Positions 13,252 through 51,296 of a DNA stretch of 64,000 bases are shown in pieces (position 1 is the first letter of the stretch; each line of letters starts with the position of its first letter). The position numbers and the translations under genes are program-made. The notes beneath the pieces are model-generated. The model worked only from the letters and a program-made list of their open reading frames with translations, was not told the DNA's origin and searched no databases. Source of the DNA: a bacterium (GTDB taxonomy: Bacteria > Patescibacteriota > Minisyncoccia > Phycocordibacterales > Phycocordibacteraceae); the NCBI GenBank assembly GCA_021836725.1, contig JAKBHL010000011.1, forward strand, positions 18,210 to 82,209. Reading direction: 5' to 3'.

Positions 13252-13708
13252 TCCTGGGTACGATCGCCTCGGCATCGCGGTCATCGAAGGCAATCCGTCG
13301 CGTCCGACGCTCCTTTGGAGCGATTGTGTGCTGCCGGAGAAAGGCGCGCCCGAGCGCCGTCTCGCCGATGTCACCGGTGCCGTCACTGCTGCGCTTCATG
13401 CTTATGCGCCCGATGCGCTTGCTATCGAGACGCTCTTTTTTGGGAAAAATAAAAAAACCGCGCTCGGCGTTGCGGAGGCGCGCGGCGCGGTTTTTGCCGC
13501 CGCCGGCATGGTTTCGGTTCCGGTCGTGGAATATTCTCCGCAACAGATAAAACTCGCGGTTACCGGCTACGGCGGCGCGAACAAAACCGCAATCGCGCAG
13601 ATGATTCCCCGGCTTCTCTCGCTCTCCGAGAAAAAACGGATGGATGATGAAATCGATGCTATAGCCATCGGCATCACCGCGCTTGCCGTCGGATCTCAAA
13701 AACACTAA
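13232..13708 (+). CDS. ruvC: crossover junction endodeoxyribonuclease RuvC
   Basis: MRILAIDPGYDRLGIAVIEG...AIETLFF...DAIAIGITAL. The start overlaps the yebC 3' end. Confidence 0.85.
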   Translation: MRILAIDPGYDRLGIAVIEGNPSRPTLLWSDCVLPEKGAPERRLADVTGAVTAALHAYAPDALAIETLFFGKNKKTALGVAEARGAVFAAAGMVSVPVVEYSPQQIKLAVTGYGGANKTAIAQMIPRLLSLSEKKRMDDEIDAIAIGITALAVGSQKH

Positions 13709-13866
13709 ACCCATCTCAAACCCCCGCTCCCCCGCGAAGGGCATGCGGCAGAAAGAGGCTTACGGAGCGCGGCGGCGCGAGTACGAGCCGCTTTTTCAGC
13801 AGAAAAAGACGGCGTACTCCTTTCTGCCGCATGCCCTTCGCGGGGGTTTTGATTGTTCTAATCCAC
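13709..13866 (+). mobile_element. MITE-like palindromic repeat, copy A
   Basis: ccatctcaaaccccc...gggggttttgattg terminal inverted repeats with internal nested palindromes (gcgaagggcatgcggcagaaag...ctttctgccgcatgcccttcgc). Related copies lie at 29527, 45021, 49410 (partial) and 51088. Confidence 0.7.
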
Positions 13867-13956: not shown

Positions 13957-14049
13957 ATGGACGAGGATGAAATTCGTGAAGAGGACGATCTGTATGACGA
14001 AGAGGACGAGTTGGAGAGTCCTGACGAGGAGGAAGACGAGCAGTATTGA
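13957..14049 (+). CDS. possible 29-aa highly acidic peptide (MDEDEIREEDDLYDEEDELESPDEEEDEQY)
   Basis: ATG...TGA ORF with 19 of 29 residues D/E, and no obvious SD. It is followed by a perfect 16-bp-stem hairpin (14065-14097) just upstream of PBP1A. Coding status is uncertain. Confidence 0.2.
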   Translation: MDEDEIREEDDLYDEEDELESPDEEEDEQY

Positions 14050-16277: not shown

Positions 16278-17378
16278 TTATTGATTCATCGGTGAAATGA
16301 GATAGAGGAGGGAAGGGTCGCCGACTCCTTTTATAATGAGCGGGCGCCCGATACCGGCGGCGGTGAGCGAAAGGCTTTCTGTATTTGTGAGCGCAAGCAC
16401 GGCTGAAAGGTAACGGTGGTTAAAAGAGAGATCGAGAGCGCTTCCGGTTATTTGCGCAGAAAGCGTTTCTGCCGATTCTCCGATATCGGTATTGTGTGCA
16501 AAGAAAGAAAAGTGATTTTTTTTAGGATCGAAATTGATGCGTATTTTTTGGAAAGAATCTGAAAAAATAGCCGTTCTTTTTAGCGCGGTTTCAAAATCCC
16601 TCCTAAGAACCATAGCTTCGACGATGGATTCCTTCGGAATAATCTGCCGGTAATCGGGATAGGCGGCGTTTGTAAGCCGTGAGACAATCATCCCGGCCGC
16701 GCTGGTGAATGCGCATTGATGCTCATCAAACACAATGGTAACGTCGCCATCGGGCAGGGCTTGCGCGATTTCTACGGCATTTTTTGCCGGGATGAGGAGT
16801 TTTCCTTGTATCCCTTTATTGCCGAGTGTTATTTTCTTTTCAGCAAGCCGGAATGAGTCCGTTGCGACCGCTATGAGCATCCCTCCTTCCAGGGAAAGGT
16901 AAATGCTTGAGAGTTCAGGGCGTATGGTTGAGTTTGATGCGCAGGAGGCGATCGAGGTGAAAAGGGTGCGGAGGAGGGTTCCGGAAAGGATTATTTTATT
17001 TTTTTGATTTTCAGGAAATGGGATTGAGGGGAAATCGTCGTGGGGTACTGTTTTTACCGAGCTTTTGCCGGTACCGCTTGCAAGAGAGACGATGTCACCA
17101 GTATGTTCGAGTGTTATTTTCCCTTCCTGAGTGAGTGATCCTGCTATTTGTTGCAGAATAGCCGCCGGAATGGCGACAACCCCCTTGCTTTTACATTCTC
17201 CCTCGAGTGTGAGATCGATGCCGGTCTCGAGATTTGTCGCGCGCATTTTTATTCCATCATCTCCGGCGATGATAAGGATAGAAGAGAGGGCGGGGAGAGA
17301 AGCGCTTTTGCGTTCGGCGAATCGAGCGACTTTATACACTGCCTCAATAAATATCTTTTTTTCTATTGAAATATACAT
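16278..17378 (-). CDS. dnaN: DNA polymerase III beta sliding clamp
   Basis: 366 aa in three clamp-like domains, begins MYISIEKKIFIEAVYKVARFAERK, and sits just downstream of dnaA. Confidence 0.9.
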   Translation of the reverse strand: MYISIEKKIFIEAVYKVARFAERKSASLPALSSILIIAGDDGIKMRATNLETGIDLTLEGECKSKGVVAIPAAILQQIAGSLTQEGKITLEHTGDIVSLASGTGKSSVKTVPHDDFPSIPFPENQKNKIILSGTLLRTLFTSIASCASNSTIRPELSSIYLSLEGGMLIAVATDSFRLAEKKITLGNKGIQGKLLIPAKNAVEIAQALPDGDVTIVFDEHQCAFTSAAGMIVSRLTNAAYPDYRQIIPKESIVEAMVLRRDFETALKRTAIFSDSFQKIRINFDPKKNHFSFFAHNTDIGESAETLSAQITGSALDLSFNHRYLSAVLALTNTESLSLTAAGIGRPLIIKGVGDPSLLYLISPMNQ

Positions 17379-17489
17379 ACGACTTTTATTAAGGCTGTTG
17401 ATAAGGGGATAAACGAAAATCAGAACTCAATGACTCGATATTTTTACAACCACGGAACACATAATGTGTGGATAAAGGGAGTGAAAGGT
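17379..17489. promoter_or_regulatory. putative oriC core (dnaA-dnaN spacer with DnaA boxes)
   Basis: AT-rich spacer containing a perfect DnaA box TTATCCACA (minus strand, 17467-17475) and the near-consensus TTATCAACA (17396-17404). Confidence 0.55.
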
Positions 17490-18845
17490 TCATACAAGAA
17501 GCGTACGGATATTTTGAATCTCTTTTGCGAGCTCACTATCCACAACAACTTCACGTTTTATCTTCTCACAAGAGTGGATAACTGTCGTGTGGTCTCTACC
17601 ACCAAGTTTCACACCGATCGTTGGGTATGAAATACTAAAATCTTCACGAAGAATGTACATAATAACCTGACGCGGCCGCACCACCTCTCTCCGCCGCGTC
17701 TTTTCATAGATGCTTTCCTCATCAATGCCGTAAAATTCAGCAACCTTATCCACCACATTCTTTACGGATATATTCTTCTGCGGCCGCGTAAACGAACGCA
17801 GCGACTGACGCACCTCCGCTATATCAGGCGCAAAACCCTTTACTTGAGCATGGCAGATAATGCTGTTTACCATGCCTTCCAATTCCCGTATGGACCCGCT
17901 CATAGAGGTCGCCACATACTCAACAACCTCATCGGAAAGCATCACCCCATGAGAGGCGGCCTTTTTCCGCACTATGGCCATACGCGACTCCGGATCCGGT
18001 TCCCCGATATCGATGGCCATACCGCTCGCTAAACGGCCCTTCAGCCGCTCCGCGACGTCTGGAATGGCCGCCGGAGCCCGGTCTGAGGAGAAGATAATCT
18101 GCTTGTTTGTATCATGAAGCGCATTGAAAAGGTGGAAAAGCTCCTCCTGTGTCCGGTCTTTTTTTGAAAGAAACTGCACATCATCCATGATAAGTAGATC
18201 GTACTGACGATATTTATCCTTGAAGCGATTCGCGGTGCCTGCCTGAACGGAGTCGGTATAATCAACCGCGAATTTCTCCGAAGTAAGGTAGAACACCTTC
18301 CGACCCGGGTATTGTTTCTTAAAATGGTTCCCGATGGCCTGGATAAGATGTGTTTTTCCGCGCCCCGTGTCGCCATAAATGAAGAGTGGGTTATAAGAGA
18401 TGCCTGGGCGCTGCAAGGTCGCCTGCGCAGCGGCATACGCGAGATTATTGAAAGAACCAATAACAAACGTATCAAACGTGTAACGGGGGTTCAGGTTATC
18501 ACTCTTGTTTATGTAAAACTCATCGAGCGGAAGCTCAAGCGCTCCCCGCACGTTCTTGGCCTCCTTTGAGGGCAGTTTACGGCGTTCATCCTTCACAATG
18601 AGATATTCGATATTGCGGAATTCATAGGACACATCCCGCAGGATCTTCAAAAGAAGCGTATGGAACTTCTTCAGATACCAATCCTTGAAGAATTGGCTCG
18701 GCACGCCGATGTACACCACCCCATCCTCGCCTATTTTCACGATAAAACTGTTCCGGAACCACGTATTGAAATTCGCGGGCGATATCGAAAGCTCAACTTG
18801 CGTGAGCACGTATTCCCACAACTCCTTCGGGTTCCCTTTGTCCAT
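17490..18845 (-). CDS. dnaA: chromosomal replication initiator DnaA
   Basis: GDTGRGKTHLIQAIGN Walker A, IDDVQFL, C-terminal DNA-binding domain. Start at MDKGNPKELWEYV... (ATG complement of 18843-18845). Confidence 0.95.
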   Translation of the reverse strand: MDKGNPKELWEYVLTQVELSISPANFNTWFRNSFIVKIGEDGVVYIGVPSQFFKDWYLKKFHTLLLKILRDVSYEFRNIEYLIVKDERRKLPSKEAKNVRGALELPLDEFYINKSDNLNPRYTFDTFVIGSFNNLAYAAAQATLQRPGISYNPLFIYGDTGRGKTHLIQAIGNHFKKQYPGRKVFYLTSEKFAVDYTDSVQAGTANRFKDKYRQYDLLIMDDVQFLSKKDRTQEELFHLFNALHDTNKQIIFSSDRAPAAIPDVAERLKGRLASGMAIDIGEPDPESRMAIVRKKAASHGVMLSDEVVEYVATSMSGSIRELEGMVNSIICHAQVKGFAPDIAEVRQSLRSFTRPQKNISVKNVVDKVAEFYGIDEESIYEKTRRREVVRPRQVIMYILREDFSISYPTIGVKLGGRDHTTVIHSCEKIKREVVVDSELAKEIQNIRTLLV

Positions 18846-18937
18846 GATACCCAAGAGTATACGCTTTTGGAGGCGGAGCGGCACACTGGTGTTTCGGGGA
18901 GAACCTGTTACTATCATGTGCATAACCAAATTTCGAC

Positions 18938-19075
18938 ATGGCCAAACAAACCTATCAACCGAAGAAACGCAAGCGTGCCCGAACCCACGGGTTTCGTGCG
19001 CGTATGAAAACGAGCGCCGGCCGTAAAATAGTGCAGAGCCGCCGCCGCACCGGCCGTACGCGCCTCACGGCCTGA
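18938..19075 (+). CDS. rpmH: 50S ribosomal protein L34
   Basis: [45 protein letters not shown], 45 aa. It is too short for the ORF track but canonical, and sits at the classic position divergent from dnaA. Confidence 0.9.
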
Positions 19076-19082
19076 TTTTTCC

Positions 19083-19394
19083 GTGTTTCCGCGCAAAGAA
19101 CGGCTTGCGCGCGACGCGTTTCCCGCGCTGCTTTCAGGCGGAAAAAGGTTCTCGTCGGCGAACTTCACCGCGCTCGCTTCAAGCGAAGGAAAGGGATACG
19201 CAGTCGTCGTATCGAAAAAGGTTGCGCGGCTCTCGGTCACGCGACACCGCATAAAACGCCGCGTTCTTGAAGCGCTGCGCACCCTCCCCCTCCCCCGATC
19301 CCTGGTCCTTTTCCCAAAATCCGCAACAAATTCTATGAGTTTTCAAGATATCCAAAAAGAGCTGTCCGGTCTCCTTTCAAAAATCCGCCACTAA
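19083..19394 (+). CDS. rnpA: RNase P protein component
   Basis: 103-aa basic protein after rpmH with ...VVVSKKVARLSVTRHRIKRRVLEAL. Confidence 0.8.
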   Translation: MFPRKERLARDAFPALLSGGKRFSSANFTALASSEGKGYAVVVSKKVARLSVTRHRIKRRVLEALRTLPLPRSLVLFPKSATNSMSFQDIQKELSGLLSKIRH

Positions 19395-19408
19395 CGTAGA
19401 ATGAACTT

Positions 19409-20173
19409 GTGATATCGACTTTCTTCCACGCGGTTTTCTACAATCCGATTTACAACGCGCTCGTCGCGCTCGTCGCGCTCGTTCCCGGGTCGAATGTGGG
19501 TGTCGCGGTCATTCTCATCACGATCGTTATCCGGCTCGTGCTCCTTCCCTTCTCGCTTTCGGCAGCCCGCACTCAGCGGGCAATGAAGTTTTTGGAGCCG
19601 AAAATAAAAGATCTGAAAGAGAAGCATAAGGGCGACAAAGAAAAAGAAGCGCTCGAAACCCTCGCGCTCTATCGCGAAGCGCGCGTGAATCCTTTCGCAA
19701 GCATCCTGACGGTCTTTATACAGATCCCCGTTCTCCTCGCGCTCTACTGGGTGTTCCTTTACGAACCGTTTTCAACGATCGATACCGCACGGCTCTACGC
19801 ATTCACCCCCATTCCGCACGCCGTTTCGCTCGAGTTCCTCGGACTCGCTTCGATCGCCGGCAAAAGCATAGTTCTCGCGGCGCTCGCGGGCTTCACCCAG
19901 TTTCTTCAGGCGCATATGGCTCTCTCGGGCACGATGAAACCCTCAGCAACCGGCGGCATGCAGGGGGATTTCCAAAAGGTAATGGGCATGCAGCTCAAGT
20001 ACGTCTTCCCGTTCCTTATCGCAACTATTTCCTACACCACCTCCGCCGCCATCGCCCTTTACTTCATCACGACGAACCTCGCCGGATCATTGCAGGAATG
20101 GCATGTCCGCCGAAAAATCCACGCGGAGTTCGGGCCGCAAAATCCGATTCCCGAAACAGTCTCCGCGGCGTAA
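19409..20173 (+). CDS. yidC: membrane protein insertase YidC (short form)
   Basis: 254-aa polytopic protein with ...IRLVLLPFSL...KFLEPKIKDLKEKHKGDKEK...LYREARVNPFAS (YidC/Oxa1 core). GTG start. Confidence 0.85.
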   Translation: MISTFFHAVFYNPIYNALVALVALVPGSNVGVAVILITIVIRLVLLPFSLSAARTQRAMKFLEPKIKDLKEKHKGDKEKEALETLALYREARVNPFASILTVFIQIPVLLALYWVFLYEPFSTIDTARLYAFTPIPHAVSLEFLGLASIAGKSIVLAALAGFTQFLQAHMALSGTMKPSATGGMQGDFQKVMGMQLKYVFPFLIATISYTTSAAIALYFITTNLAGSLQEWHVRRKIHAEFGPQNPIPETVSAA

Positions 20174-21388
20174 TCAGAGCTTATACGACCACAACGACCC
20201 GTCGTTTTTGTTTATAAAAGCGAGAACGGTGCCGGAAGGATCGATCGCGAGCGCTTCAGCGTCAAGCGGGCTACTCGTCTCTTTCGAGAAATCGAGCACA
20301 AGCTGCGCAAAGCGGCCCGCAACATCTATCTTCCAGATGCGATCGGAGAAGTGCACCGCGCCCTGGTACCAGTCGTCGGGGTATGCGTAATTTTTAGGCG
20401 GGTTCATGGGGATACCGCAATACACTGCGGAATTGTCAGCCGCCCACACGCACTTGTCCGCGATGGTCGCTACGGGGAGCGGCACCACTGCGCCCGTTGC
20501 CACGTTCACAAGCTCCATCTGCATGCCTTGCGGGAGCGTATAGCTTACCAACACCCACTTCCCGGACGGGCTTGCGAGGGCGACAAGGCCGTTCAAGGGC
20601 CCCGCGATGCGCGAAAAGCGTCCGGCGCTATCAACGATGAACGCATCGCCCGGAAGCGTTGCCGAAGGTTTTGTGAACGCAAGATACTGATTCTTCCCCG
20701 CAAAGGAGACGCGGAGCGAGGAGAGCGGCGTGGTGAATATCTCCGAGGAGTGCGTGCCGTCCGTGCGCATGAGCGAGGCGGATGAACCGTTCACTCCGGA
20801 GGCGAGTGCGAGCACGCTTGTCGAGGAAACGGCCAGGTCGGAAAGGTTTTGCGGCAGGAAGAAGCCGTTTCCGTCGTTTGCCGAGAGCGCGTAGGTATTG
20901 ATGGTAGAAAAGTCAGCGCCCGAAAGATAACGCACGAAAGCTAAAGAAGCATTCGGAAGCCACGAGGCCTCCTCGATGCCCGGGAGAGTTTTGTTTGAGG
21001 TGCGGGTGAGCACGCCCGTGCCGATTTGATATGAAAATACATTGCCGCTTTGCCGCTCGATATACGTAACTACGGTATCCGGAGAAGAACTCGCGTTTTT
21101 CGCAGAAATATCCACGACGGCCTCTCCTGGTACGACCGGGCCGGCGCTTATCTTCACTAGCCGCGCAGAAACCACGGTAGGCACGGGCGCACTGGAGGCT
21201 GAGGAAGTCGGTGTTTGACTGGTAGATGTCGGCACCGCTCCCTGCCCTGCCGTGGGCAGATTCGCACTTCCGCTCGGCGCCACTGTCACGCCCGGGGCGT
21301 TTGCGAAGAAATAAAAATACGCGACCACCCCCGCCCCGAGGGCGACTATCACAAGCGCGGCGATGATGAGGTAGCGGCGCATACTCAT
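20174..21388 (-). CDS. membrane-anchored hypothetical protein (possible periplasmic beta-propeller)
   Basis: N-terminal TM (RRYLIIAALVIVALGAGVVAYFYFF), a Ser/Thr-rich linker, and a C-terminal region ending ...DGSLWSYKL. The start could also be 21382. Confidence 0.55.
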   Translation of the reverse strand: MSMRRYLIIAALVIVALGAGVVAYFYFFANAPGVTVAPSGSANLPTAGQGAVPTSTSQTPTSSASSAPVPTVVSARLVKISAGPVVPGEAVVDISAKNASSSPDTVVTYIERQSGNVFSYQIGTGVLTRTSNKTLPGIEEASWLPNASLAFVRYLSGADFSTINTYALSANDGNGFFLPQNLSDLAVSSTSVLALASGVNGSSASLMRTDGTHSSEIFTTPLSSLRVSFAGKNQYLAFTKPSATLPGDAFIVDSAGRFSRIAGPLNGLVALASPSGKWVLVSYTLPQGMQMELVNVATGAVVPLPVATIADKCVWAADNSAVYCGIPMNPPKNYAYPDDWYQGAVHFSDRIWKIDVAGRFAQLVLDFSKETSSPLDAEALAIDPSGTVLAFINKNDGSLWSYKL

Positions 21389-22353
21389 TGGAATGGCGTC
21401 CAACTTGGATTGTCGGCACATTTAGTATCCAAATTACCGTACCAAGAGACGTCTTCGCACGTTAATTTTTCAGGATAACATTTCCAAGATGTTCCATACG
21501 AGGGATCATTTTTTGTCAACTGACAAGGAACTGAAGAATAGGTTATGTGTAGACCAGAAGTCGGGTCATCACTCACGCAAGTTTTGAATCCAACATTTGC
21601 AGCATGGCATATGTTTGCGAAAGCCATAGCGTCAGCTCCATTGTTCGGTCTTGAAGGATAGTGAACCAAGGGCTGTAATATGTTGATTGTGAGTGAAAAG
21701 AAGCTCTGGTCGTATATGAATACATACCCTTGTTTCCCGGTACAAGTTGCCACATATGTCGGTACTCCGTTCGAAGAATTAGTTATGGAAGTGACAGACA
21801 GGTTTCCATCGGTACAATTCTGCTGACCCCATGTTGTGGCCTGATTATTGGTAAAACACTTTGCTATTTGGAGAATGCCGGGCGTACCGTTCACTGAACA
21901 TTGAGACGGTGTTGGACTGGTAGGTCCCGACCCGCTCCCGCCTCCTGCCGGAGCTGTCAGGTTGACCGGCGACATGCCGATGGAGAGGTTCAGGATGCTC
22001 GGATTGATGATGGAGAAAACGAGCACGGGCAACAAGACAAGAACAAGACCGAAAATAGCGTTATATATCCTCCCTTTGCTGTCCAAAATCTTGCTGACAT
22101 TGTCTTTATTCGTCGCTATCTCAAGACCGCCCCAAATGATCATGATGACCGCGAGAACCGCGGCGGCTCCGATGAGGAACTTGTAGAGATTGTTGAGAAA
22201 AGAGGCAATGCCGCCCGAGGTCGCTTGAACGCCCTGAGTGAGGCCGGGGATGCCCGCGAGCGGAACAAATCCCTGATTATTAGTCTGGGCTAGGGCATGA
22301 GGCACAAATGCGAGAAACGCAAAGAAAATCGACATGATCAGTATTTTTTTCAT
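21385..22353 (-). CDS. T4SS-pilin-like (TrbC/VirB2-type) protein fused to a Cys-rich secreted domain; low-GC gene
   Basis: Signal peptide MKKILIMSIFFAFLAFVPHALA, then ...FLNNLYKFLIGAAAVLAVIMIIWGGLEIATN...FGLVLVLLPVLVFSIINPSIL (two TM hairpin typical of conjugative pilins), then a ~200-aa domain with 12 Cys. GC is about 42% against ~60% flanking. Confidence 0.6.
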   Translation of the reverse strand: MKKILIMSIFFAFLAFVPHALAQTNNQGFVPLAGIPGLTQGVQATSGGIASFLNNLYKFLIGAAAVLAVIMIIWGGLEIATNKDNVSKILDSKGRIYNAIFGLVLVLLPVLVFSIINPSILNLSIGMSPVNLTAPAGGGSGSGPTSPTPSQCSVNGTPGILQIAKCFTNNQATTWGQQNCTDGNLSVTSITNSSNGVPTYVATCTGKQGYVFIYDQSFFSLTINILQPLVHYPSRPNNGADAMAFANICHAANVGFKTCVSDDPTSGLHITYSSVPCQLTKNDPSYGTSWKCYPEKLTCEDVSWYGNLDTKCADNPSWTPFQ

Positions 22354-23354
22354 AGGCCGAAGAGATTACCGCCCGTCTGCGCTCCGAAAGAGAGCGAAAG
22401 ATTCGCCGTCGCCTTGATGAAGTCGCCGGAAGAGGCGACGAGCGAGAGCGACGCGCTCCCTCCCCCGCTTCCGGTCGGACGCAGTGTGATGGAGTTCCCC
22501 GTCTGCGCCGCGGCGCCGTTCAAGAACCACTCCAGGGCAGGCGCCGCGGCGCTGGTCGGGAAAGAAAACGGCGCCGCGTAGAGCGAAGCTTCCGTTCCCG
22601 TGATCGCATAACTGTCGGCAAGAGCGTGATCATACAGGATGCCGAGCAAGGGATCATTTTTATAGATGCGCACCACCGGCTCTTCGGCGGTGAGTGAGGA
22701 CGATGCGCCGCCCGTGATGCTACCGCTTGGGTTTTCGACCGCTACCGAGACCGTACTTTCACGGTACTGTAGCGGCGAGGCGACGATGATCGCGTCCTTG
22801 CCGATGCCCGAAGCGCTTGCGATTTGCGTGCCATTGACCGTCCAGGTGTATGAAAGCGTTCCGGGATCGAGCGTTCGTCCGTTTCCGTCCCGCAGATTCG
22901 CTACAGCGACCATTCGCGTACTCCCTTCGAGCGGTACAAGCGGTTTACCGGCGTAAAGCGGCGGGGCCGAGGAGACCGGTTCAGCGATGAGGCTGACATC
23001 CTGGGGACGGATCGAAAGCGTCTGGCTGTATTGTGTTCCGTTTATGGAAATAACCACTTTTACGTTCATGAGAACTCCCGCTCCGCCGAGCGTCACGGCG
23101 ACCGGCTGCACGTTGCCGCGGTACACCTGTGTGCCGCCGGCAAAGACGGCCATCGTCGCGCCGGAAAGATCGAGCGACGAGGAAAGCTCGGACACCGTAA
23201 CTTGGCTATAGGGCGCCGGATACTGCGGACTCACCGATAGCGTAAAGGATTGAGAGGTATTGATATTGAAGGATTGTGCGCTTGCCGCAAAAGGCGCGGA
23301 AAAAGCCAGTATGACAAGAGCACCGAGAAGCGGTCGCAAAGAGTGCGCGGGCAT
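22350..23354 (-). CDS. secreted hypothetical protein (T4SS-module associated)
   Basis: 334-aa ORF with signal peptide MPAHSLRPLLGALVILAFSAPFAASA and a Ser/Thr/Gly-rich body. Confidence 0.55.
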   Translation of the reverse strand: MPAHSLRPLLGALVILAFSAPFAASAQSFNINTSQSFTLSVSPQYPAPYSQVTVSELSSSLDLSGATMAVFAGGTQVYRGNVQPVAVTLGGAGVLMNVKVVISINGTQYSQTLSIRPQDVSLIAEPVSSAPPLYAGKPLVPLEGSTRMVAVANLRDGNGRTLDPGTLSYTWTVNGTQIASASGIGKDAIIVASPLQYRESTVSVAVENPSGSITGGASSSLTAEEPVVRIYKNDPLLGILYDHALADSYAITGTEASLYAAPFSFPTSAAAPALEWFLNGAAAQTGNSITLRPTGSGGGSASLSLVASSGDFIKATANLSLSFGAQTGGNLFGL

Positions 23355-23383
23355 GCCTCCAGTATATCGCGTGTGCGGGGTCG

Positions 23384-24025
23384 TTATGCCGCTTCGCGAG
23401 TGTCGGCGGGGATTTCCTCGCCGCCATAATCCTCGTCATTTGCGGCCTGCTCTTCCTCCGCCGCGCGCATTTGCATGACTTGCATGACCTGCCGCGCCTG
23501 TATTTCCCGTTCTTGCTCTCGCACGGCAGCCTGTTCTTTTTCATACTGTTTCAGAGCCTTCCTTTCTTTCTTTATCTGAGCGTGATACATCTTCCAGGTT
23601 GTAGCGGTCAATACTGGCACCGTACCCACAAGCGGCACCTCGCTTACGCCGAGACTGAACAGCATCCACAGCGCGTTACCCGCATTCTCCTTGAATATGC
23701 GCGCATCGGTGATCACCAGCATGAGTCCGACCGTCATCCATCCGAGGAATCCGACCGCCATGGCCATGACGATCCCGAGCACTTCAATCGCACCGGCGCC
23801 GAAAATACCCGCCGCGCCGCCCACGACCGTCCCCGCGACATGCCCAGCAGTCCCGCCGCCCACAAGCGCGCTTGTCCCGACGCCGATAAAAAGCGGCGCG
23901 AAAAGCCAGAATTGTTCGAACATGAAACGCAGCGCGTCGAAGATGAGACAGACGACGAGGACCGGCACCGCTTTCGCCCAGGTCATCGTCTTGGGCGGCT
24001 GATTACTGTTTCTGCGCGAGGGCAT
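23384..24025 (-). CDS. polytopic membrane protein (VirB6/TrbL-like candidate)
   Basis: 4-5 TM helices, Gly-rich (GGTAGHVAGTVVGGAAGIFGAGAIEVLG), and a charged C-terminal tail. It lies immediately downstream of the VirB4-like ATPase. The start may be at M14 (MTWAKAV). Confidence 0.5.
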   Translation of the reverse strand: MPSRRNSNQPPKTMTWAKAVPVLVVCLIFDALRFMFEQFWLFAPLFIGVGTSALVGGGTAGHVAGTVVGGAAGIFGAGAIEVLGIVMAMAVGFLGWMTVGLMLVITDARIFKENAGNALWMLFSLGVSEVPLVGTVPVLTATTWKMYHAQIKKERKALKQYEKEQAAVREQEREIQARQVMQVMQMRAAEEEQAANDEDYGGEEIPADTREAA

Positions 24026-25823
24026 GGCGTTCCTTCTCCTCTTTCATCGCAAGAAGCTGCGAAGGATCGGACGTGATGATCTGGTCTTCGGTGTAGCTTG
24101 CGACGACTTTTATGGCAACATGCTTCAATCCCGCGAAAAAGAGGCCCTCGCCCACCCCGGCCTCGAGAAGAAGATATTTTTCCTCATCGGTCAGATTGAA
24201 CGTCTCCTGGAGCACCCCGATCGTCGTTGGCGATTGTTTCAACAGCAATTGCAGGGAAGAGTTGGTGAGAATCGGCCTGCCGTACGGGCTCTTGAGGAAG
24301 TCCTCCACATCCTGCGTTATGGTGCAGACGCCAAGGTAATACTTGCGTCCGCGTTTGGCGACGGAATATAGGAAGGAGGCGGTATCTTCGCTCTTCATCA
24401 TCCACCATGCCTCATCAATTACCAGGAGGCGTTTCTTGAGTTCGTGACGCACCGCGTTCCAGATGTAGTGCGTGATGATATACATAGCCGCAGGCTTGAG
24501 CTCGTCCTCCATATCGCGCACCGAAAAGACCGCGAACTGCTGGTTGATATCGATATTGGTCGGCTGGTTGAGGAATCCGGACCACGTGCCACGCGTGTAT
24601 TTTGAAAGCCGCTCCACCAAGGATTCGCTTCCCTCCATGCCGGAGAGCACTTGTTCGAAATCGGACAGAAGCGGCGGCTCGGCGCCGGTGAAATCCGCAT
24701 CGCCTGTGATGTCTTTGAGCGCATACGTCTCGCTGATGGCACGGTCGACGATAGCATCTTCCTCCGGCGACAATCCCGAGAGCATGATGCGGAAAAGTCC
24801 GACGAGCGCGATGATGTTGGAGCGCAGGATGTCTTTTGGGTCCTCGTCTTCTTTGACGGGCGGGAGGTCGAAAGGATTGATATGGTGTTCCGAAGAAAGC
24901 GAGATGTGGAAGGAGCGGCCGCCGGTCGCCTCGGCAAGCTGCTCGTACTCGTGCTCGGGGTCGATGACGATGACGTCGGTGCCGAACATGAGGGAACGGA
25001 GTATCTCGAGCTTCGTCGCGTAGCTCTTCCCGCTTCCGGACTTCGCGAAGATGACCGAATTGTAGTTCTCAAGCGAGAAGCGATCGAAGAGGATGAGCGA
25101 AGAATTGTGCCGGTTGATGCCGTAGAGGATGCCGCGGTCGCTCGTGAGGTCGAAGGAGATGAATGGGAAGATCGAGGAAAGCGGCGAGGAGTTCAGCTTT
25201 GAATTGACGAGGAGCTCGTCGCTGCCGAGCGGCAGGCAGGAACGGAACCCTTGCTCCTGCTGGAAGAGCGCGGGTTTGGTGTAGACAAGCTTCGCATCAA
25301 GAATGCCGCGGATATCGCCCTCGGTCTTATTAATCTCTTCCTTGGAGTCACCATAGAGCGCAAGGTACAGGCCGACATCGAAAAGCTTTTCCTGCGCCTG
25401 CTGGAGGTTGTCGCGCAGATTTTCAAGATCCTGGTATGCGGTATCGAGCAAGGGGTCGCGCACAAGCCCCCTCGCTTCGCGCTCGCTTATCTGGCTTTGC
25501 ACCTCGGCGACTTTTTTCTGGAATCCGCGGAGCGCCTGCGCCGTCTCTATCGGGTGGATGAATATCGATACGTCAAGCACCTTGTCGAGATTGATGACCG
25601 GCGAGAACCAGCTGTCGGAAAGAAACCGCGGGTAGGAGACGGTATAAAAAGCGCGGACGAATTTTTCTCCGAGCTCAAGCTCGCGCGAACCGATCTTGAG
25701 CGCGGTCGGGGCGATGGTGTCGATGAGATTCAAAGAACCTTGCCGGTAAATGTCTCTCGGCAAGACCGGGACTATGGCCGGCGCCTCCTCTTTTTTACGG
25801 TTTAGGAAGTTGAGAAGTGACAT
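24003..25823 (-). CDS. VirB4/TrbE-family type IV secretion ATPase (core and C-terminal part)
   Basis: Walker A FAKSGSGKSYATK, Walker B LLVIDEAWWMMK, plus DUF87-like features, 606 aa. Confidence 0.8.
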   Translation of the reverse strand: MSLLNFLNRKKEEAPAIVPVLPRDIYRQGSLNLIDTIAPTALKIGSRELELGEKFVRAFYTVSYPRFLSDSWFSPVINLDKVLDVSIFIHPIETAQALRGFQKKVAEVQSQISEREARGLVRDPLLDTAYQDLENLRDNLQQAQEKLFDVGLYLALYGDSKEEINKTEGDIRGILDAKLVYTKPALFQQEQGFRSCLPLGSDELLVNSKLNSSPLSSIFPFISFDLTSDRGILYGINRHNSSLILFDRFSLENYNSVIFAKSGSGKSYATKLEILRSLMFGTDVIVIDPEHEYEQLAEATGGRSFHISLSSEHHINPFDLPPVKEDEDPKDILRSNIIALVGLFRIMLSGLSPEEDAIVDRAISETYALKDITGDADFTGAEPPLLSDFEQVLSGMEGSESLVERLSKYTRGTWSGFLNQPTNIDINQQFAVFSVRDMEDELKPAAMYIITHYIWNAVRHELKKRLLVIDEAWWMMKSEDTASFLYSVAKRGRKYYLGVCTITQDVEDFLKSPYGRPILTNSSLQLLLKQSPTTIGVLQETFNLTDEEKYLLLEAGVGEGLFFAGLKHVAIKVVASYTEDQIITSDPSQLLAMKEEKERHALAQKQ

Positions 25824-25825
25824 GG

Positions 25826-26461: not shown

Positions 26462-26463
26462 AG

Positions 26464-26910
26464 CTAGGATTCTACACTGCGACGGCTGCCGTCCATAGAT
26501 TTTACATCAAGCGACCATGCGAGCTCCGAGAGTTTCCCTCGCGTGAGTTTCGGCGTGCCGCGCGGCGTGCGCGCCTGCGCATCGGCCGCCGCGGCCGCCG
26601 CGGCCGCGGCGTTTTTCTCCGCCGCTTTCGGTTCGGCGTGTTTCCAGAGAAAGAGTTTGCCGCTTGTGTAGTAATTGAATCCGGCTTCAAGCACTTCAAT
26701 GAAGGGTTTCCCGTTCATTTTATAGAAAGAGAGCGCCACCGCGAGCGCCACCACCGGCGCCGAAAAGAGAAGCGCGAGCACTATCGGCAGATAAACGAAG
26801 AGGACAATGCATATGCCGCCCGCGCCGGCGACATATATGAACTGTTTCAGGGTCAAGGGCCCGATTATCTTGTCCTCGACATCGATAAATTGCGGCACTT
26901 GATATTCCAT
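26464..26910 (-). CDS. PrgI/VirB3-like small two-TM protein
   Basis: MEYQVPQFIDVEDKIIGPLTLKQFIYVAGAGGICIVLFVYLPIVLALLFSAPVVALAVAL..., directly upstream of the VirB4 ORFs, which is the PrgI-family pattern. Start chosen at ATG 26910. Confidence 0.55.
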   Translation of the reverse strand: MEYQVPQFIDVEDKIIGPLTLKQFIYVAGAGGICIVLFVYLPIVLALLFSAPVVALAVALSFYKMNGKPFIEVLEAGFNYYTSGKLFLWKHAEPKAAEKNAAAAAAAAADAQARTPRGTPKLTRGKLSELAWSLDVKSMDGSRRSVES

Positions 26911-26999
26911 CCCGTACAGTATAGCAGTTGCCGCCGCGGCATACTGTCGAGTATAGCCGCCGCGGCATATCGCCGGGCGCACGTTCAATCCTCGCCGCG

Positions 27000-28328: not shown

Positions 28329-28332
28329 AGCG

Positions 28333-29516: not shown

Positions 29517-29526
29517 TTAACAAGTA

Positions 29527-29712
29527 GGGCCGCTCCCCCGCTCGGGTATGCGACAGAAAGGAGTACGCCGTCTTTTTCTGCTCAAAAAGCGGCTCGTACT
29601 CGCGTCGTCACGCTCCGTAAGCCTCTTTCTGCCGCATACCTCTCGCGGGGAGAGGGTCACTCCTAAGCTGACATCTTAGGAGACGCATACCCGAGCGGGG
29701 ATTTGAAACGGA
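29527..29712 (-). mobile_element. MITE-like palindromic repeat, copy B (opposite orientation, right end extended)
   Basis: Reverse complement of the copy A/E core (gcgacagaaaggagtacgccgtctttttctgctcaaaaagcggctcgtactc...cctctttctgccgcatacc), ending ggggatttgaaacgg. Confidence 0.65.
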
Positions 29713-29714
29713 TT

Positions 29715-30284
29715 TTAGCTCTGCGTGATTGTTTCTCCGTCCGACACATACGTACTCCTAGGCGTAGAGGAGGAAATGGAAAGTGTTGTAGCGCCGTAGG
29801 AAATAGCAAGCGTTCCAGGCGCACGAATTTCAATACGCACACCACCAAACATAAACGATGCTCCGTAAGGGACGCTGCGAGTGCCCGCTTGCACGCGCGT
29901 CGAGACGGCATACCGGCTCTCCACATCCGGTAGTCCGCCGGCAAAAAGGGTCCCGGGGTCGGTAAGGATGACGGCGTCGATGCTTCTCTGCCACATCGGT
30001 AACGTCTCTCCAAGGGCGCGCAAAATACTCGCATCCGGCCCGGTATCGATAAGAAGCGTCCGGCCATGCGGCGTGCGCACCAAAACCGGATGGTTTTTCT
30101 TTCCTGCGTCGAGTACGGATACGGTTACTACAGGTGGCGCGAATATCTCTCGGTATACGCCAATATTCCCGAGCACGAGCACAAAACACAGGAGAAGCCA
30201 AAAGCGCAGTGGCCACTGGTTCTCCTTGGAGGGAATAGAGTGTGCTTCGACTGTGTTTTCTAGAGCACTCCCGTGGTGCACCAT
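29715..30284 (-). CDS. membrane-anchored metallo-beta-lactamase-fold protein (ComEC C-terminal-domain-like)
   Basis: TM anchor, then ...VLVRTPHGRTLLIDTGPD...DAVILTDP..., resembling the beta-lactamase-like domain normally fused to ComEC. Confidence 0.55.
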   Translation of the reverse strand: MVHHGSALENTVEAHSIPSKENQWPLRFWLLLCFVLVLGNIGVYREIFAPPVVTVSVLDAGKKNHPVLVRTPHGRTLLIDTGPDASILRALGETLPMWQRSIDAVILTDPGTLFAGGLPDVESRYAVSTRVQAGTRSVPYGASFMFGGVRIEIRAPGTLAISYGATTLSISSSTPRSTYVSDGETITQS

Positions 30285-43669: not shown

Positions 43670-45019
43670 ATGATTGATTTGAAAACCATCAATGCAGTGC
43701 TCGGGGAGTTCGAGGATCGCGGCATCGGCCGCGCGACGATGATCGATGCTATCGAAAGCGCCATGGCGACCGCCTACAAGCGCGAGTACGGCAAGCGCGG
43801 ACAAGTCGTACGGGCAAAACTTGATCTCGATACGGGCACGGTCTCTTTCGAACAGGTGAAAACCGTCGTGGATGACACCACAGCGCGCTTCCCGACCGAA
43901 GGCGAAGAGCACGAAAAACACGCGCATGGATTCTATCCGGAAGAGGAGCAGCTTGCCGAGGGCGAATTGCCACGTTTTGATCCCGAGAAGCACATACTGC
44001 TCGCCGATGCGAAACGCATGAAGCGCGGCGCCGCTTTAGGCGAGGAAATCGTATTCCCGCTTGAATCGCAGGACGACTTCGGCCGCATCGCGGCGCAGAC
44101 CGCAAAACAGGTGGTCATCCAGAAGGTGCGCGAGGCCGAAAAGCTTTCAATGATGGAGGAGTTCGGCGAAAAGAAGGGCAAGATCGTCAGCGGTATCGTG
44201 CAGCGCATGGAGCGCGGCGCGATTTTCGTCGATCTCGGGCGTACGACCGGCATCATTCCCTACGAAGAGCAGATCCCGGGCGAGCGCTACCGCATGGGCG
44301 AACGCATTCGCGCATACCTTTACGCGGTTGACGAAGGTTTCCGCGGCGTGTATCTTCGGCTCTCGCGCGCACATCCGAAATTCGTCGTAAAACTTTTCGA
44401 ACTCGAAGCGCCGGAACTCGCGGCGGGATCAATCGAAGTAAAAGCGCTTGCACGCGAGCCGGGCAGCCGCACCAAGATCGCGCTCGTGTCCCTCGACCCG
44501 CACGTGGATCCGGTGGGTTCCCTGGTCGGACAACGGGGCGTACGCGTCTCGACCGTGATGAGCGAGCTCGGCGGCGAGCGCATCGATATCATCGAATGGA
44601 GCGAGGACGCGAAGGAATTCGTGAAAGAGTCGCTCTCGCCCGCAACGCCGATCGATGTCGTGCTCGACGAGGCCGCGCATCGCGCGACAGTCACCGTCTC
44701 CGGCGACGAGCAGTCGCTTGCCATCGGCCGCGGCGGCCAGAACGTCCGTTTGGCGGCGAAGCTCACCGGCTGGAATATCGATATCGTGTCGATAGACGGC
44801 AATGAGATTGCCGAATCCGACGGCGAATCGGCGGCGATCGCCACGGAGGATCCCGCCGAAGCGGCAGGGGTTATGCCGACCGAAAGCGCGGAGGTCATCG
44901 CCGACGCGCCGGCGGAGAAGACCGAGCTCCCCGCCGAGGAAGAATTGACCGAGCTCCCCGCTTCAGACGAAACTATCGCTGACAAGGAGGAGGATCGCGA
45001 TACGGCGAAAGATGATTAG
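43670..45019 (+). CDS. nusA: transcription termination/antitermination factor NusA
   Basis: N-terminal domain, S1 domain (KIVSGIVQRMERGAIFVDLG), two KH domains, and an acidic C-terminal tail. Confidence 0.9.
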   Translation: MIDLKTINAVLGEFEDRGIGRATMIDAIESAMATAYKREYGKRGQVVRAKLDLDTGTVSFEQVKTVVDDTTARFPTEGEEHEKHAHGFYPEEEQLAEGELPRFDPEKHILLADAKRMKRGAALGEEIVFPLESQDDFGRIAAQTAKQVVIQKVREAEKLSMMEEFGEKKGKIVSGIVQRMERGAIFVDLGRTTGIIPYEEQIPGERYRMGERIRAYLYAVDEGFRGVYLRLSRAHPKFVVKLFELEAPELAAGSIEVKALAREPGSRTKIALVSLDPHVDPVGSLVGQRGVRVSTVMSELGGERIDIIEWSEDAKEFVKESLSPATPIDVVLDEAAHRATVTVSGDEQSLAIGRGGQNVRLAAKLTGWNIDIVSIDGNEIAESDGESAAIATEDPAEAAGVMPTESAEVIADAPAEKTELPAEEELTELPASDETIADKEEDRDTAKDD

Positions 45020-45020
45020 A

Positions 45021-45170
45021 ACTCATTTCAAACTCCCCGCTCGGGTATGCGGCAGAAAGGAGTACGCCGTCTTTTTGTGCTCAAAAAGCGGCTCGTACTC
45101 GCGTCGTCACGCTCCGTAAGCCTCTTTCTGCCGCATACCTCTCGCGGAGATATGGGGTTTTGAAATGAGT
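45021..45170 (-). mobile_element. MITE-like palindromic repeat, copy C
   Basis: Terminal inverted repeats actcatttcaaactcccc / ggggttttgaaatgagt and a core about 95% identical to copy B. Confidence 0.7.
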
Positions 45171-45202
45171 TCCAGTACGTTTATAAGGTATACTTGATTC
45201 AT

Positions 45203-48747: not shown

Positions 48748-49410
48748 ATGAACTATATTCGGAAAGTAGAAAATGCGAAAAAATTGATACGGGAATCGAT
48801 CGCTACCTATCCGAAAATCATTCTCGGTTCCTCTTTCGGCAAGGATTCGATGGTAACGTTGCATCTCACCTTGTCGGTAAAGCCCGATATCCCCGTATTC
48901 TCGGTCCTTGCCGACACAGAATTCCCGGAAACGTATGCATTTGCGGAAGAAATGGTCCGTAAATACGGATTGAATTACACGCCGTACGTATTCGAGCAGG
49001 TGCAAGGCAAGAAATGCTGCGGAGAGTCCAAAGTTGAAAAAACCAGGGAAGCCCTCAAGCCTTATGACGCCTGGATTTCCGGAGTAAGAAAAACGGAGGG
49101 CATCACCAGAGCCAATTTCAATCCGGTGGAAGAAAAAAACGGGCTGACAAAAATCAATCCGATACTCGAGTTCACGGAATTGGACATCTGGAGATATCTC
49201 GCACTCAATGAGGTTCCGGTAAATCCGAAATACAAAGAGGGTTACAGAAGTCTGGGGTGCAGCCTTTGTTCTTTCCCCGAAGAGGACGAATCCGAAAGTG
49301 AACGCGCGGGAAGGTGGAAAGGGACGACGGACGCCTGCGGCGAATGCGGCATCCATACGCAGCCCCTCAGGAACTCGTTTTCGGAGCCCAGGGAGGCACA
49401 GGTTGCATAG
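48748..49410 (+). CDS. PAPS-reductase-family (CysH/DndC-like PP-loop) protein; standalone, lower GC
   Basis: PP-loop ILGSSFGKDS and a C-terminal Cys cluster (CSLCSF...CGECG). It has its own promoter (TTGCTG - 17 nt - TACAAT, 48712-48740) and a leaderless-type start. GC is about 48%. Confidence 0.7.
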   Translation: MNYIRKVENAKKLIRESIATYPKIILGSSFGKDSMVTLHLTLSVKPDIPVFSVLADTEFPETYAFAEEMVRKYGLNYTPYVFEQVQGKKCCGESKVEKTREALKPYDAWISGVRKTEGITRANFNPVEEKNGLTKINPILEFTELDIWRYLALNEVPVNPKYKEGYRSLGCSLCSFPEEDESESERAGRWKGTTDACGECGIHTQPLRNSFSEPREAQVA

Positions 49411-49497
49411 CCTCTTTCTGCCGCATACCCCTCGCGTCACCCTGTAAATTATATGTTTAACATTTAATTACTCGCGTCGCCCTGGAGTTTTGAAATC
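49410..49497 (-). mobile_element. MITE-like repeat, partial copy D (one half only)
   Basis: cctctttctgccgcatacccctcgcg ... gagttttgaaatcg matches the right half and terminal inverted repeat of copies B/C. Confidence 0.5.
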
Positions 49498-49564
49498 GAA
49501 GCTTACAGCTTCAGTACACCTTGTGGATATTTTGCTTCAGGAAATCGCAAAATATGCTCACAAG

Positions 49565-49906: not shown

Positions 49907-51085
49907 ATGTCGCGCTTCGCGCACTATCTCAGCATCATCGCAGCTCTCATCCTCGGAGCTTTCATCGTTGCTTTCTCGAGCCATCCGGCTGTTTCGCATA
50001 CCCCTGTAGCGGCTACCCCTGCCGCCTCTTCAACCCTTTCCGTGGTGTCCGGCTCTGTCGCCTCCACGAGCATTGATTTGAGAGGGAGCGCGACGACGAC
50101 TCGTTCTGAGCAAACGGCTCCTGAGCCCGCTCAGAAAAAGACTGCCGCTCCGAGCGCTCCTACGTCCAAACCCGCTCCCGCTACGCCTGTTTCGACGTCC
50201 ACGCCGCCTGCATCAGAATCGGTTTCCGCTCCATCCCCGCTTCCTTCATCCGGAAGTGCGGAATTTGATGCTTCCGCTGCGGCGCTGCGCGCCGCACTCG
50301 TAAACATCATCTGTTACGCTCCCGCCGGAAGCGGTCTACATTCCATTTCCGGCAGCGGCGTTTTCATCAGTCCCAAGGGGATCATCCTCACCAATGCGCA
50401 TATCGCGCAGTATTTCCTTCTCTTCAATCGCGGCGTTTCCTGCACCATACGTTCCGGAAGCCCCGCAGTGAGCCGCTATACCGCAAAACTCATCTTTATT
50501 TCAAGCGCCTGGGTGCACGCCAATGCGAGAGTGCTCACTGAAGCGACTCCAAGCGGCACGGGCGAATACGATTTTGCCCTCCTCGCCATAGACGCGAGCG
50601 TTACGGCCGACCCGCTCCCCGATCCGTTCCCCTTTGTGCCGCTTGCCACGACCCCTCCGCCCTCCGGCACCCCGGTCGTCATCGCCTCCTATGGCGCGCA
50701 ATTCCTTGACCCAAGCCAAGTGCAGCACGATCTCTTTCCGACGATCGTTTTCGGTTCGGTAAAGAATGTATTCACCTTCGGCACGAACACTATCGATGTG
50801 CTCGCGCTTGGAGGTTCTGCGGCGGCGCAAGAAGGGTCCTCGGGCGGCGGCGTCTCCAATGCCTCCGGCACGCTTGTCGGCACTATCACCACAAGCACGG
50901 TGCAAGGCGCAACCGCCACCCGTTCTCTGAGCGCGATAACCGCTTCCTATATCCGCGCCGAGTATGCAAGTGAAACAGGACAAGCGCTTGATCTCCTGCT
51001 TGCGGAATCGACTTCGACCGCCATCGCAAATTTCGCGCCGCAGATGCCTCCGCTCGAATCAGTATTAACCGCTGCCTTGCCCTAA
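49907..51085 (+). CDS. membrane-anchored trypsin-like serine protease (S1 family)
   Basis: N-terminal TM, a Pro/Ser/Thr-rich linker, then catalytic His (ILTNAHIAQY), an Asp region, and Ser (GSSGGGV). Confidence 0.7.
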   Translation: MSRFAHYLSIIAALILGAFIVAFSSHPAVSHTPVAATPAASSTLSVVSGSVASTSIDLRGSATTTRSEQTAPEPAQKKTAAPSAPTSKPAPATPVSTSTPPASESVSAPSPLPSSGSAEFDASAAALRAALVNIICYAPAGSGLHSISGSGVFISPKGIILTNAHIAQYFLLFNRGVSCTIRSGSPAVSRYTAKLIFISSAWVHANARVLTEATPSGTGEYDFALLAIDASVTADPLPDPFPFVPLATTPPPSGTPVVIASYGAQFLDPSQVQHDLFPTIVFGSVKNVFTFGTNTIDVLALGGSAAAQEGSSGGGVSNASGTLVGTITTSTVQGATATRSLSAITASYIRAEYASETGQALDLLLAESTSTAIANFAPQMPPLESVLTAALP

Positions 51086-51087
51086 AG

Positions 51088-51244
51088 CCATTTTCAACCC
51101 CCAATCTCCCCGCGAAGGGTATGCGGCAGAAAGAGGCTTACGGAGCGCGACGGCGTAAGTTCGAGCTGCTTTTAGAGCAGAAAAAGACAGCGTACTCCTT
51201 TCTGTCGCATACCCTTCGCGGGGGAAGCGAAGTTTTGAAATGGA
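51088..51244 (+). mobile_element. MITE-like palindromic repeat, copy E
   Basis: Terminal inverted repeats ccattttcaaccccc / gttttgaaatgg. The core is about 90% identical to copy A. Confidence 0.7.
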
Positions 51245-51296
51245 TTCTAATCTCGGGCGAATGCTCCGCATTCTCGCCCTCCTTCATTTCTTTCAG

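Follow-up and report, generated by a model that had tools for sequence, protein, structure and literature searches.

Probable non-autonomous transposons (MITEs) inserted at stop-codon TA dinucleotides in genomes of Parcubacteria

Introduction

Several described families of short bacterial repeats resemble the one reported here, each of them in part. Correia elements (CREE) of Neisseria measure about 100-155 bp, possess terminal inverted repeats (TIRs), duplicate a TA target and occur in many intergenic copies that are co-transcribed and form long hairpins, a description that our family recalls (in part PMC2229807, PMC3049150). Their sequence and the phylum of their host are nevertheless unrelated, and their TIRs are 26 bp long, well conserved and equipped with promoter and IHF motifs, whereas in our family the core is better conserved than the TIRs, copies sit exactly in stop codons and promoter-like ends were not found. 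Correia elements are not known to encode a transposase themselves.

The pneumococcal RUP is a non-coding MITE (miniature inverted-repeat transposable element) of 107 bp which, like our family, uses a TA target; its mobility is attributed to the transposase of an IS630-family element (IS630-Spn1) acting in trans (PMC2229807). However, the TIRs of RUP match a resident IS630 copy and RUP inserts preferentially in or near insertion sequences (IS), whereas the targets here are stop codons of housekeeping genes and there is no known partner IS. BOX repeats of Streptococcus pneumoniae often overlap the extreme 3' ends of genes, 36 of which, in strain ATCC 700669, take their stop codon from the repeat (PMC3049150); both this supply and their transcription as structured RNA are points of likeness. 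Unlike our family, BOX is modular (boxA-B-C), shows no TA duplication and overlaps stop codons occasionally rather than as a rule. Finally, ERIC/IRU and REP/BIME sequences of enterobacteria are extragenic palindromic repeats as well, with transcript hairpins that affect mRNA stability (in part PMC2229807, PMC3184786). In contrast to the present copies, REPs have only 20-40 nt, lack TIRs and target-site duplications and depend on RAYT, and ERIC shows no precision with respect to stop codons.

Here we analyze a repeat family found in one 64-kb stretch of bacterial DNA (below, the window) and in related genomes. A sequence-only reading of the window had called the family MITE-like. We agree and put the probability at about three in four that its members are non-autonomous DNA transposons (MITEs) which insert at TA and are sited in stop codons. 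The kind of element is ordinary; its host and the precision of its location are unusual.

Repeat copies in the window

The window has a G+C content of 56% and, by greedy longest-ORF gene calling, a coding fraction of 89%. It contains four full copies and one remnant of a repeat of about 150 nt (Table 1), which account for about 1.2% of the sequence. All five copies proposed in the sequence-only reading are present essentially where it had placed them, and their limits could be refined. The TIR 15-mer, with at most two mismatches allowed, has five matches in the window against 0.09 expected, and none of 100 shuffles equals this number. BLAST comparisons of copy with copy yield E = 1e-38 to 1e-53 among the window copies, and a profile HMM built from 15 copies recovers exactly the five copies of the window and nothing else. 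Repeat search revealed no second dispersed family in the 64 kb. Copies are 149-216 nt long; their length differences (inserts of 58 and 42 nt) are not multiples of three, they occur in both orientations, and ORFs running across them are not conserved. The family is thus short (less than about 500 bp) and non-coding, as is expected of MITEs.

Table 1. Coordinates of repeat copies and their parts in the window
Feature	Position	Strand	Description
c1	13708..13858	+	Full length, 151 nt; between ruvC and small acidic ORF/PBP1A gene
c1 flanks			TA 13706-13707 (within ruvC stop TAA, 13706-13708) and TA 13859-13860
c1 helix P1, 5' arm	13729..13755	+	Pairs perfectly (27 bp) with 13820-13846
c1 junction J	13756..13766	+	AGGCTTACGGA; predicted unpaired; nearly invariant among copies
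c1 helix P2	13767..13778	+	GCGC-GGCG-GCGC; compensatory changes in 3 of 4 pairs across copies
c1 helix P3	13779..13819	+	GAGTACGAGCCGCTTTTTC AGCA GAAAAAGACGGCGTACTC; closing pair C-G or G-C depending on copy
c1 helix P1, 3' arm	13820..13846	+	
c2	about 29520..29715	-	Between convergent rpmB (stop 29514-29516) and 189-aa minus-strand gene; left limit approximate, rpmB-side TIR lost
c2 end			Stop of 189-aa gene (29715-29717) overlaps element end and its TA (29716-17)
c2 extra 42-nt segment	29654..29695	-	In c2 only; second arm copy (CCCCGCTCGGGTATGCG) and small hairpin 29660-29682
c3	45019..45172	-	Full length, 154 nt; between nusA and pyrophosphatase gene
c3 flanks			nusA stop TAG (45017-45019) is TA plus first G of element; TA on far side missing
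c4	49409..49502	-	Truncated remnant: TIR, arm and P1 5' arm up to J
c4 stop			TAG of PAPS-reductase-like gene (49408-49410), within former J
AT-rich near-palindrome	49446..49470	.	TAATTAAATGTTAAACATATAATTTA; nested in c4, flanked by 13-nt direct repeat AGGG(C/T)GACGCGAG
c5	51085..51247	+	Full length, 163 nt; between S1 protease gene and minus-strand tRNA
c5 flanks			TA 51083-84 (in stop TAA, 51083-85) and TA 51248-49

To judge from its sequence, the extra segment of c2 appears to be left over from an older copy or a nested one. A weak match to the P2-P3 part of the core lies at 49678-49725 on the minus strand (profile E = 0.29; a 19-nt BLAST match with 95% identity), roughly 180 nt from the remnant c4 and adjoining a tRNA gene; judging by similarity and position, it could represent another piece of the decayed c4, or be due to chance.

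A typical element begins and ends with TIRs of 16-19 bp (5'-GAACCCATTTCAAAACCCC ... GGGGTTTGAAATGGGTTC-3'). Most copies carry the motif GAACCCATTTCAAA(ACCCC) at either end, with 0-3 mismatches, as the pair GAACCCATTTCAAA.../...TTTGAAATGGGTTC, which is the terminal structure expected of a MITE. Near-perfect TIRs of 15-17 bp had been reported from the first inspection; TIRs are indeed there, yet they reach 2-4 bases further out (GAAC.../...GTTC) and carry 1-4 mismatches each. They are degenerate at the right end of c1 and the left end of c2. Inwards from the TIR follow a variable C-rich spacer and a conserved core of about 105 nt. As a single strand, the core is predicted to fold into a three-way junction, where the long stem P1 is capped by two small hairpins, P2 and P3, and an unpaired junction. 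The long internal palindrome seen earlier is real, extending over 27 bp that are perfect in c1. Every full copy folds as one long hairpin; for c1, the folding energy is -89.6 kcal/mol (z = -8.9), and that of the opposite strand -91.6 kcal/mol (z = -7.3). None of the copies matched an Rfam family, either at gathering thresholds or at E up to 5. Integron attC sites were rejected on inspection, because core-site motifs and array context are absent.

Target site and mobility of the elements

Relatives for alignment of the ruvC-PBP spacer were found through RuvC homologues. In two of them (L016 and L017; RuvC identity 85-88%) the site is empty and reads ...ACATTAATCCACA..., or, in other extents, CATTAATCC and AAAAACATTAATCCACA. 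In a third relative (L012; 92% RuvC identity) the site is filled and reads ...CATTA|GAACTCATCTCAAACCCC...GGGGTTTGAAATGGGTTC|TAATCCACA..., so that the junctions ...ACATTA|GAAC...GTTC|TAATCC... are common to L012 and the window. Comparison of L016 and L017 with L012 therefore shows that the element spans GAAC to GTTC and that the single TA of the empty site has become two. Neither empty sites nor the gained TA were accessible to the sequence-only reading, and both back its view of a MITE-like family. Most copies, at least 10 of them, are flanked by TA on both sides, which corresponds to the duplicated target of a MITE and, more specifically, to the TA target of MITEs derived from IS630/Tc1-mariner elements. 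Three-base or TTAA duplications (IS5/Harbinger or piggyBac type) were rejected, because the flanks do not fit them. Since TA is itself palindromic, insertion between T and A without any duplication, with TIRs one base longer, fits the data equally.

Other sites behave in the same way. Between nusA and ppa, the window has a spacer of 174 nt and the BP9.bin55-type genome one of 240 nt, compared with 37 nt in L032 and L033 (77-78% S1-protease identity); in these two relatives the S1-protease site is empty as well. Altogether, the family occupies at least 12 independent sites in four genomes, and copies are present or absent at the ruvC, nusA and S1-protease sites among close relatives.

Such empty sites bear directly on the notion that copies are palindromes of REP/BIME type, or intrinsic terminators which resemble each other through shared constraint and not through mobility. 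Their extragenic position after genes, high G+C and palindromic nature would be in keeping with it. However, presence and absence at orthologous sites means insertion, and convergence cannot account for about 93% identity along 105 nt shared by unlinked loci and by different genomes. The unit, 150-215 nt with TIRs and a gained TA, is also far larger than REPs of 20-40 nt, and the terminator scan was negative. Compared with what defines REP/BIME (imperfect palindromes of 20-40 nt with a conserved tetranucleotide head, no TIRs or target-site duplication, a RAYT gene), we found a unit of at least 150 nt with TIRs and a gained TA, and saw no Y1 gene in the loci examined. We consider this explanation hardly conceivable and, owing to the empty sites, refuted for practical purposes. 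The reading as a MITE-like family is supported by TIRs, hairpin, empty sites and TA duplication, and the family matches nothing known in Rfam or in the phage, plasmid and viral collections.

Location in stop codons

At 10 of the 12 independent sites, the TA that is duplicated forms part of the stop of an ORF with at least 100 codons. The genes concerned include gyrA, tatD, nth, ruvC and nusA, and in L003 and L009 both ends of the element abut stops of convergent genes. If intergenic and stop-codon TAs are regarded as permissive, 35 of the 277 permissive TAs in the window belong to stop codons (about 13%, taken as p = 0.13). The binomial probability of 3e-8 was computed for an earlier tally of 11/14; that for 10/12 is expected to be of the same order. 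According to the sequence-only reading, all copies directly follow a stop codon. In the case of ruvC, nusA and the S1 protease, this proved more exact than stated, as the TA of the stop is itself the flanking TA. The stop which abuts c2 is that of the 189-aa gene, with the rpmB stop a few bases away from the degenerate end, and the stop at c4 lies inside the truncated core.

The ruvC gene ends with TAA in the empty sites and with TAG in L012. With G as its first and C as its last base, an element going into TA|A or TA|G rebuilds TAG next to the gene, and the encoded protein stays as it was. The clearest example is the c2 site. In L034 and L036, the element and two TAs fill nearly the whole gap between the 189-aa gene and rpmB, and the reconstructed empty site, ...AAC TAA|CTA AAT..., consists of two convergent stops without any spacer. 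In a genome that is 89% coding and where convergent genes are sometimes not separated by a spacer, TAs of stop codons would be among the few harmless targets. The position of copies would thus be mainly the outcome of survival of harmless insertions only, and a target preference may add to it.

Insertion directly after stops had led the sequence-only reading to propose that copies double as terminators or mRNA stabilizers. Position does not support this conclusion, because the need for TA and the rebuilding of TAG explain it more simply. Besides, the consensus tail TTTGAAAT fails a standard scan for terminators and copies stand in either orientation relative to the upstream gene. The scan for intrinsic terminators left c3-c5 unflagged and marked only a 6-bp sub-hairpin in c1, and the consensus has no canonical U-tract; the same scan flags a real-looking terminator-like site at 46533-46577.

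Different states of the same site

At one and the same site, the state of the copy varies between relatives. At the ruvC and S1-protease sites, the window and the genome of BP9.bin55 type have the whole unit in opposite orientations. All lineages sampled, with protein identities as low as 74%, have an element at the c2 site: in L034 it has the orientation of the window, in L035 it is inverted, and in L036 an internal deletion joins the junction to the 3' TIR. In L009, a full copy stands beside a half copy. The closest relative of a copy is not the one at the same site in another genome: c1 shares 84.6% identity with the copy in L012, but 92.8% with that in L009. The arms of c3 match those of L007, an unrelated locus in another genome, at 59 of 61 positions, and its core matches that of c2 at 94 of 96. 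We rejected the idea that L007 might be the nusA site of a close relative, which would have accounted for the shared arms, because synteny is lacking. These changes of state could arise by repeated insertion at a few safe TAs together with loss of older copies, by recombination between inverted arms, or by conversion between copies.

Two contigs of BP9.bin55 end inside copies (L006:7640-7982 and L002:7400-7562). Contig L006 is chimeric, with a nusA-side flank joined through the repeat to an S1-protease flank. It was rejected as the orthologue of the nusA site and L030 used in its place, because the outer part of L006 is the chimeric end of a contig and has the C-terminus of the S1 protease as its flank. 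The repeats thus break or mis-join contigs of metagenome-assembled genomes (MAGs), as in L002 and L006, which is relevant to assembly of CPR genomes.

Conservation and structure of the core

Mean pairwise identity between copies is 93% in the core of about 105 nt, as against 69% in the arms (TIR plus spacer). When the window species is compared with the species of BP9.bin55 type, four-fold synonymous sites of adjacent genes are only 60-77% identical. The two species have in common that one TA is oddly absent at the nusA site; there, 6 of 96 core positions differ, against 52 of 226 synonymous sites (Fisher p = 2e-4); pooled over three sites, the comparison of core with synonymous sites gives p = 1e-10. 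In the usual MITE, termini are conserved more than the interior, and this family shows the reverse. Judged against synonymous sites, passive decay of old insertions does not explain such conservation. Genome-specific homogenization of the core by concerted evolution was rejected, because distances between cores are equal within and between genomes (about 7/96); they radiate in a star-like manner around one consensus.

The predicted helices are maintained as well. Over the 37 pairs in P1, P2 and P3, 97.5% are paired, and seven pairs have changed on both sides, compared with 2.1 +/- 1.0 in column shuffles (none of 500 reaches seven) and at most one in controls with slid partners. Compensatory-looking changes, suspected at first inspection, are thereby established statistically. 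The covariation is good evidence for a maintained hairpin, not proof of RNA function: template switching, without any selection, can also bring about paired changes in a quasi-palindrome of DNA, and a double change in L012 created a new palindrome while preserving no old pair. Strand could not be deduced from G-U versus A-C mismatches, as a slight excess of G-U on the plus strand of the element does not track transcription; we discarded this approach as uninformative.

Large inserts are confined to loops, namely the P2 loop or the unpaired junction J. Five copies of BP9.bin55 type (L001, L002, L004, L008 and the nusA-site copy in L030) have a 58-nt insert in the P2 loop (CGACC..ACGTTTCTTACGAGCGGAGCGAGTTAGAAACGTGG...GTGGTAA) with a hairpin of its own; the window copy at the nusA site is free of it. 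By its sequence and distribution, this insert can be read as a subfamily marker or a nested insertion. The copy in L034 has a 58-nt AT-rich insert in the junction. The near-palindrome nested in c4 (24-27 nt) recurs in another copy, in L034 (L034:6636-6659), at a different internal position and may, to judge from this recurrence, be a second, even smaller insertion element.

Strong conservation of the core raises the question of whether copies, having spread as mobile elements, are now kept by the host as RNA. In this case, the three-way-junction hairpin in the 3' UTR would end transcripts, block 3' exonucleases or bind a protein, and the position after stops would itself be functional. Such a role is compatible with an origin from MITEs; we regard the module as possible, though on balance doubtful, and the functional meaning of its position with similar reserve. 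The core, at 93% identity, exceeds both the synonymous sites (60-77%) and the arms (69%), compensatory changes affect P1, P2 and P3, and the unpaired junction AGGCTTACGGA hardly varies. Folding is very stable for either strand; several copies are placed between convergent genes, which would benefit from a barrier working in both directions; and the c2 site is filled in all sampled lineages, to 74% protein identity. On the other hand, a canonical U-tract is absent (the tail reads UUUGAAAU) and the terminator scan flags just the sub-hairpin of c1. An asymmetric core that is found in either orientation and flips at a fixed site makes a strand-specific RNA function unlikely; further, a common G-T wobble in P1 keeps to one strand of the element regardless of how the site is transcribed. 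Close relatives lack an element at the ruvC, nusA and S1-protease sites, and, as the L012 case illustrates, template switching could produce paired changes in a quasi-palindrome. A possible role of copies as a symmetric hairpin barrier in 3' UTRs would fit the conservation of the core.

Search for a mobilizing enzyme

The sequence-only reading had seen no transposase in the window. This holds for about 3-61 kb of it, as judged from Pfam lists of syntenic loci. No transposase domain was detected by Pfam in about 200 kb of annotated syntenic loci, relatives of the window included, and none in 50 ORFs from nine unannotated copy-bearing loci, where only housekeeping genes were found; overall, about 300 kb were examined without encountering a transposase. 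A search for a full-length IS with matching TIRs ended likewise, since TIR matches (up to three mismatches) in the loci examined fall at short copies only. Neither an IS630-type DDE transposase gene nor a Y1 transposase gene was seen in these loci, and no locus contains a gene for an HUH enzyme or an extra recombinase, a XerC/D-like integrase being the only one present. We infer a transposase of IS630/Tc1 type from TA duplication and TIRs only.

Alternatively, copies might be single-strand hairpin elements moved by an IS200/IS605-like HUH enzyme or by a recombinase that recognizes hairpins, with insertion between T and A and no true duplication; the conserved folded core would then be the recognition structure. 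Maintenance of core structure by compensatory changes, with large inserts tolerated in loops only (P2 loop, J), agrees with this, and the TA duplication is indistinguishable from insertion at T|A if the TIRs are longer. The loci examined yielded no DDE transposase, and the flips of whole elements recall, by analogy, the flip-flop of parvovirus terminal repeats, which are hairpins that invert in this way. Against it stand the clear TIRs of 16-19 bp at the very ends: such TIRs are typical of DDE elements, and IS200/IS605 elements have none. There is also no orientation bias relative to the likely origin near dnaA (c1 +, c2-c4 -, c5 +), nor an HUH or extra recombinase gene at any locus besides the XerC/D-like integrase. 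When compared with palindrome-associated elements of the IS200/IS605 type (PATEs), copies depart from them by possessing TIRs and by mixed orientation on one replichore, their duplication being ambiguous. Movement by such an enzyme strikes us as improbable, and equally so the role of the core as its recognition structure.

Distribution of the family

The exact core 21-mer occurs in only 3 of 185,579 species-representative genomes, namely BP9.bin55 (8 loci), WY4.bin53 and 'Candidatus Parcubacteria' clean656. GCA_027422635.1 and a number of ENA assemblies represent the species of the window. Flanking proteins have homologues whose annotation is Minisyncoccota, Paceibacterota or Kaiserbacteria, Minisyncoccota being the NCBI phylum that contains Patescibacteria/CPR lineages. 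Going by these matches, the family seems confined to a few related MAGs of Parcubacteria/Minisyncoccota. Collections of plasmids and phages contained no match to the family, and viral contigs none to the core. Three matches of the TIR 18-mer in viral sequences have no further similarity and were dismissed as chance, as was the single match of the core 20-mer in JGI metagenomes (L011), which is in a coding region. The literature searched gave no account of a MITE family in CPR bacteria.

Other features in the neighborhood of copies

Between ruvC and the PBP1A gene, the window contains a small, conserved and extremely acidic ORF of 30-33 residues (MDEDEIREEDDLYDEEDELESPDEEEDEQY) at 13957-14049 on the plus strand. 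It has counterparts in L012:10763-10855, L016:10603-10695 and L017:8397-8498, is called by gene finders in three relatives and has in front of it an AT-rich stretch (TTGCATTGG...TTTTGCTCAAATATATGCG) that is highly conserved and resembles a promoter.

Downstream of the S1 protease gene, L030:11320-11480 and L032:11200-11500 contain a segment of about 170 nt between two copies of the 3' end of the neighboring tRNA gene (TTCAGTCGGGCCGCCGAGA), which is absent in the window and in L033. From its borders, it looks like a scar or small insert of an integrative element that targets tRNA genes.

The genes dnaN (16278-17378, -), dnaA (17490-18929, -) and yidC (19409-20173, +) adjoin each other (region 16278-19400), G+C dips locally and the cumulative GC skew has its minimum near 20-22 kb; by these marks, the window probably contains the replication origin. 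Near this region, at about 20200-28400, there is a chromosomal gene cluster resembling conjugation/type IV secretion systems (T4SS pilin, TraG-like P-loop ATPase, TraC-like and PrgI-like proteins; annotated through L022). It is conserved in all relatives examined.

Discussion

Everything testable that marks a MITE was found in this family with the exception, in the loci examined, of a cognate IS, and the family does not pass as a REP/BIME sequence, an intrinsic terminator, an Rfam family or an IS200/IS605-type element. We therefore favor the following course of events for these MITEs. A TA-specific DDE transposase of IS630/Tc1-mariner type would act on them in trans and insert them at TA, which is duplicated, as seen at the ruvC site. 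Surviving copies are found in the TA of TAA or TAG stops, with TAG rebuilt by the first G of the element, as at the sites described above; selection, perhaps with target preference, would concentrate them at such harmless TAs. There, they are probably co-transcribed in 3' UTRs as a very stable hairpin. Comparison of the same sites across genomes shows the later fate of copies: they invert, lose internal parts, are truncated, receive nested insertions and exchange sequence with one another. The core would be kept by constraint on both sequence and structure, most likely because mobilization needs it, or else through a 3'-end RNA structure that matters to the host.

Several observations weigh against this reading. 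No partner IS or transposase was found in the loci examined, the core is conserved more than TIRs and synonymous sites, the gained TA fits a T|A insertion equally, and flips at the same site need an extra process, be it inversion in situ, re-insertion at the same TA or conversion between copies. Another view is that we are dealing not with passive MITEs of DDE type but with a hairpin-based mobile or recombining module, whose active core, T-shaped like viral repeats, would direct both insertion into stop codons and flip-flop in situ through some novel mechanism, or with a standard 3'-end or gene-boundary structure recruited by this CPR clade. We hold this view to be quite unlikely.

If they are MITEs, as we prefer to think, the copies illustrate the survival of a selfish element where hardly any DNA can be spared, namely through insertion at the TA of a stop codon, which is restored by the element's first base. 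Genomes of CPR/Patescibacteria are tiny and usually called streamlined; here, the family accounts for about 1.2% of the sequence. Taken together, the covarying core and the flips at fixed sites represent a small testable system for studying hairpin dynamics, or a possible function in 3' UTRs, in unculturable organisms.
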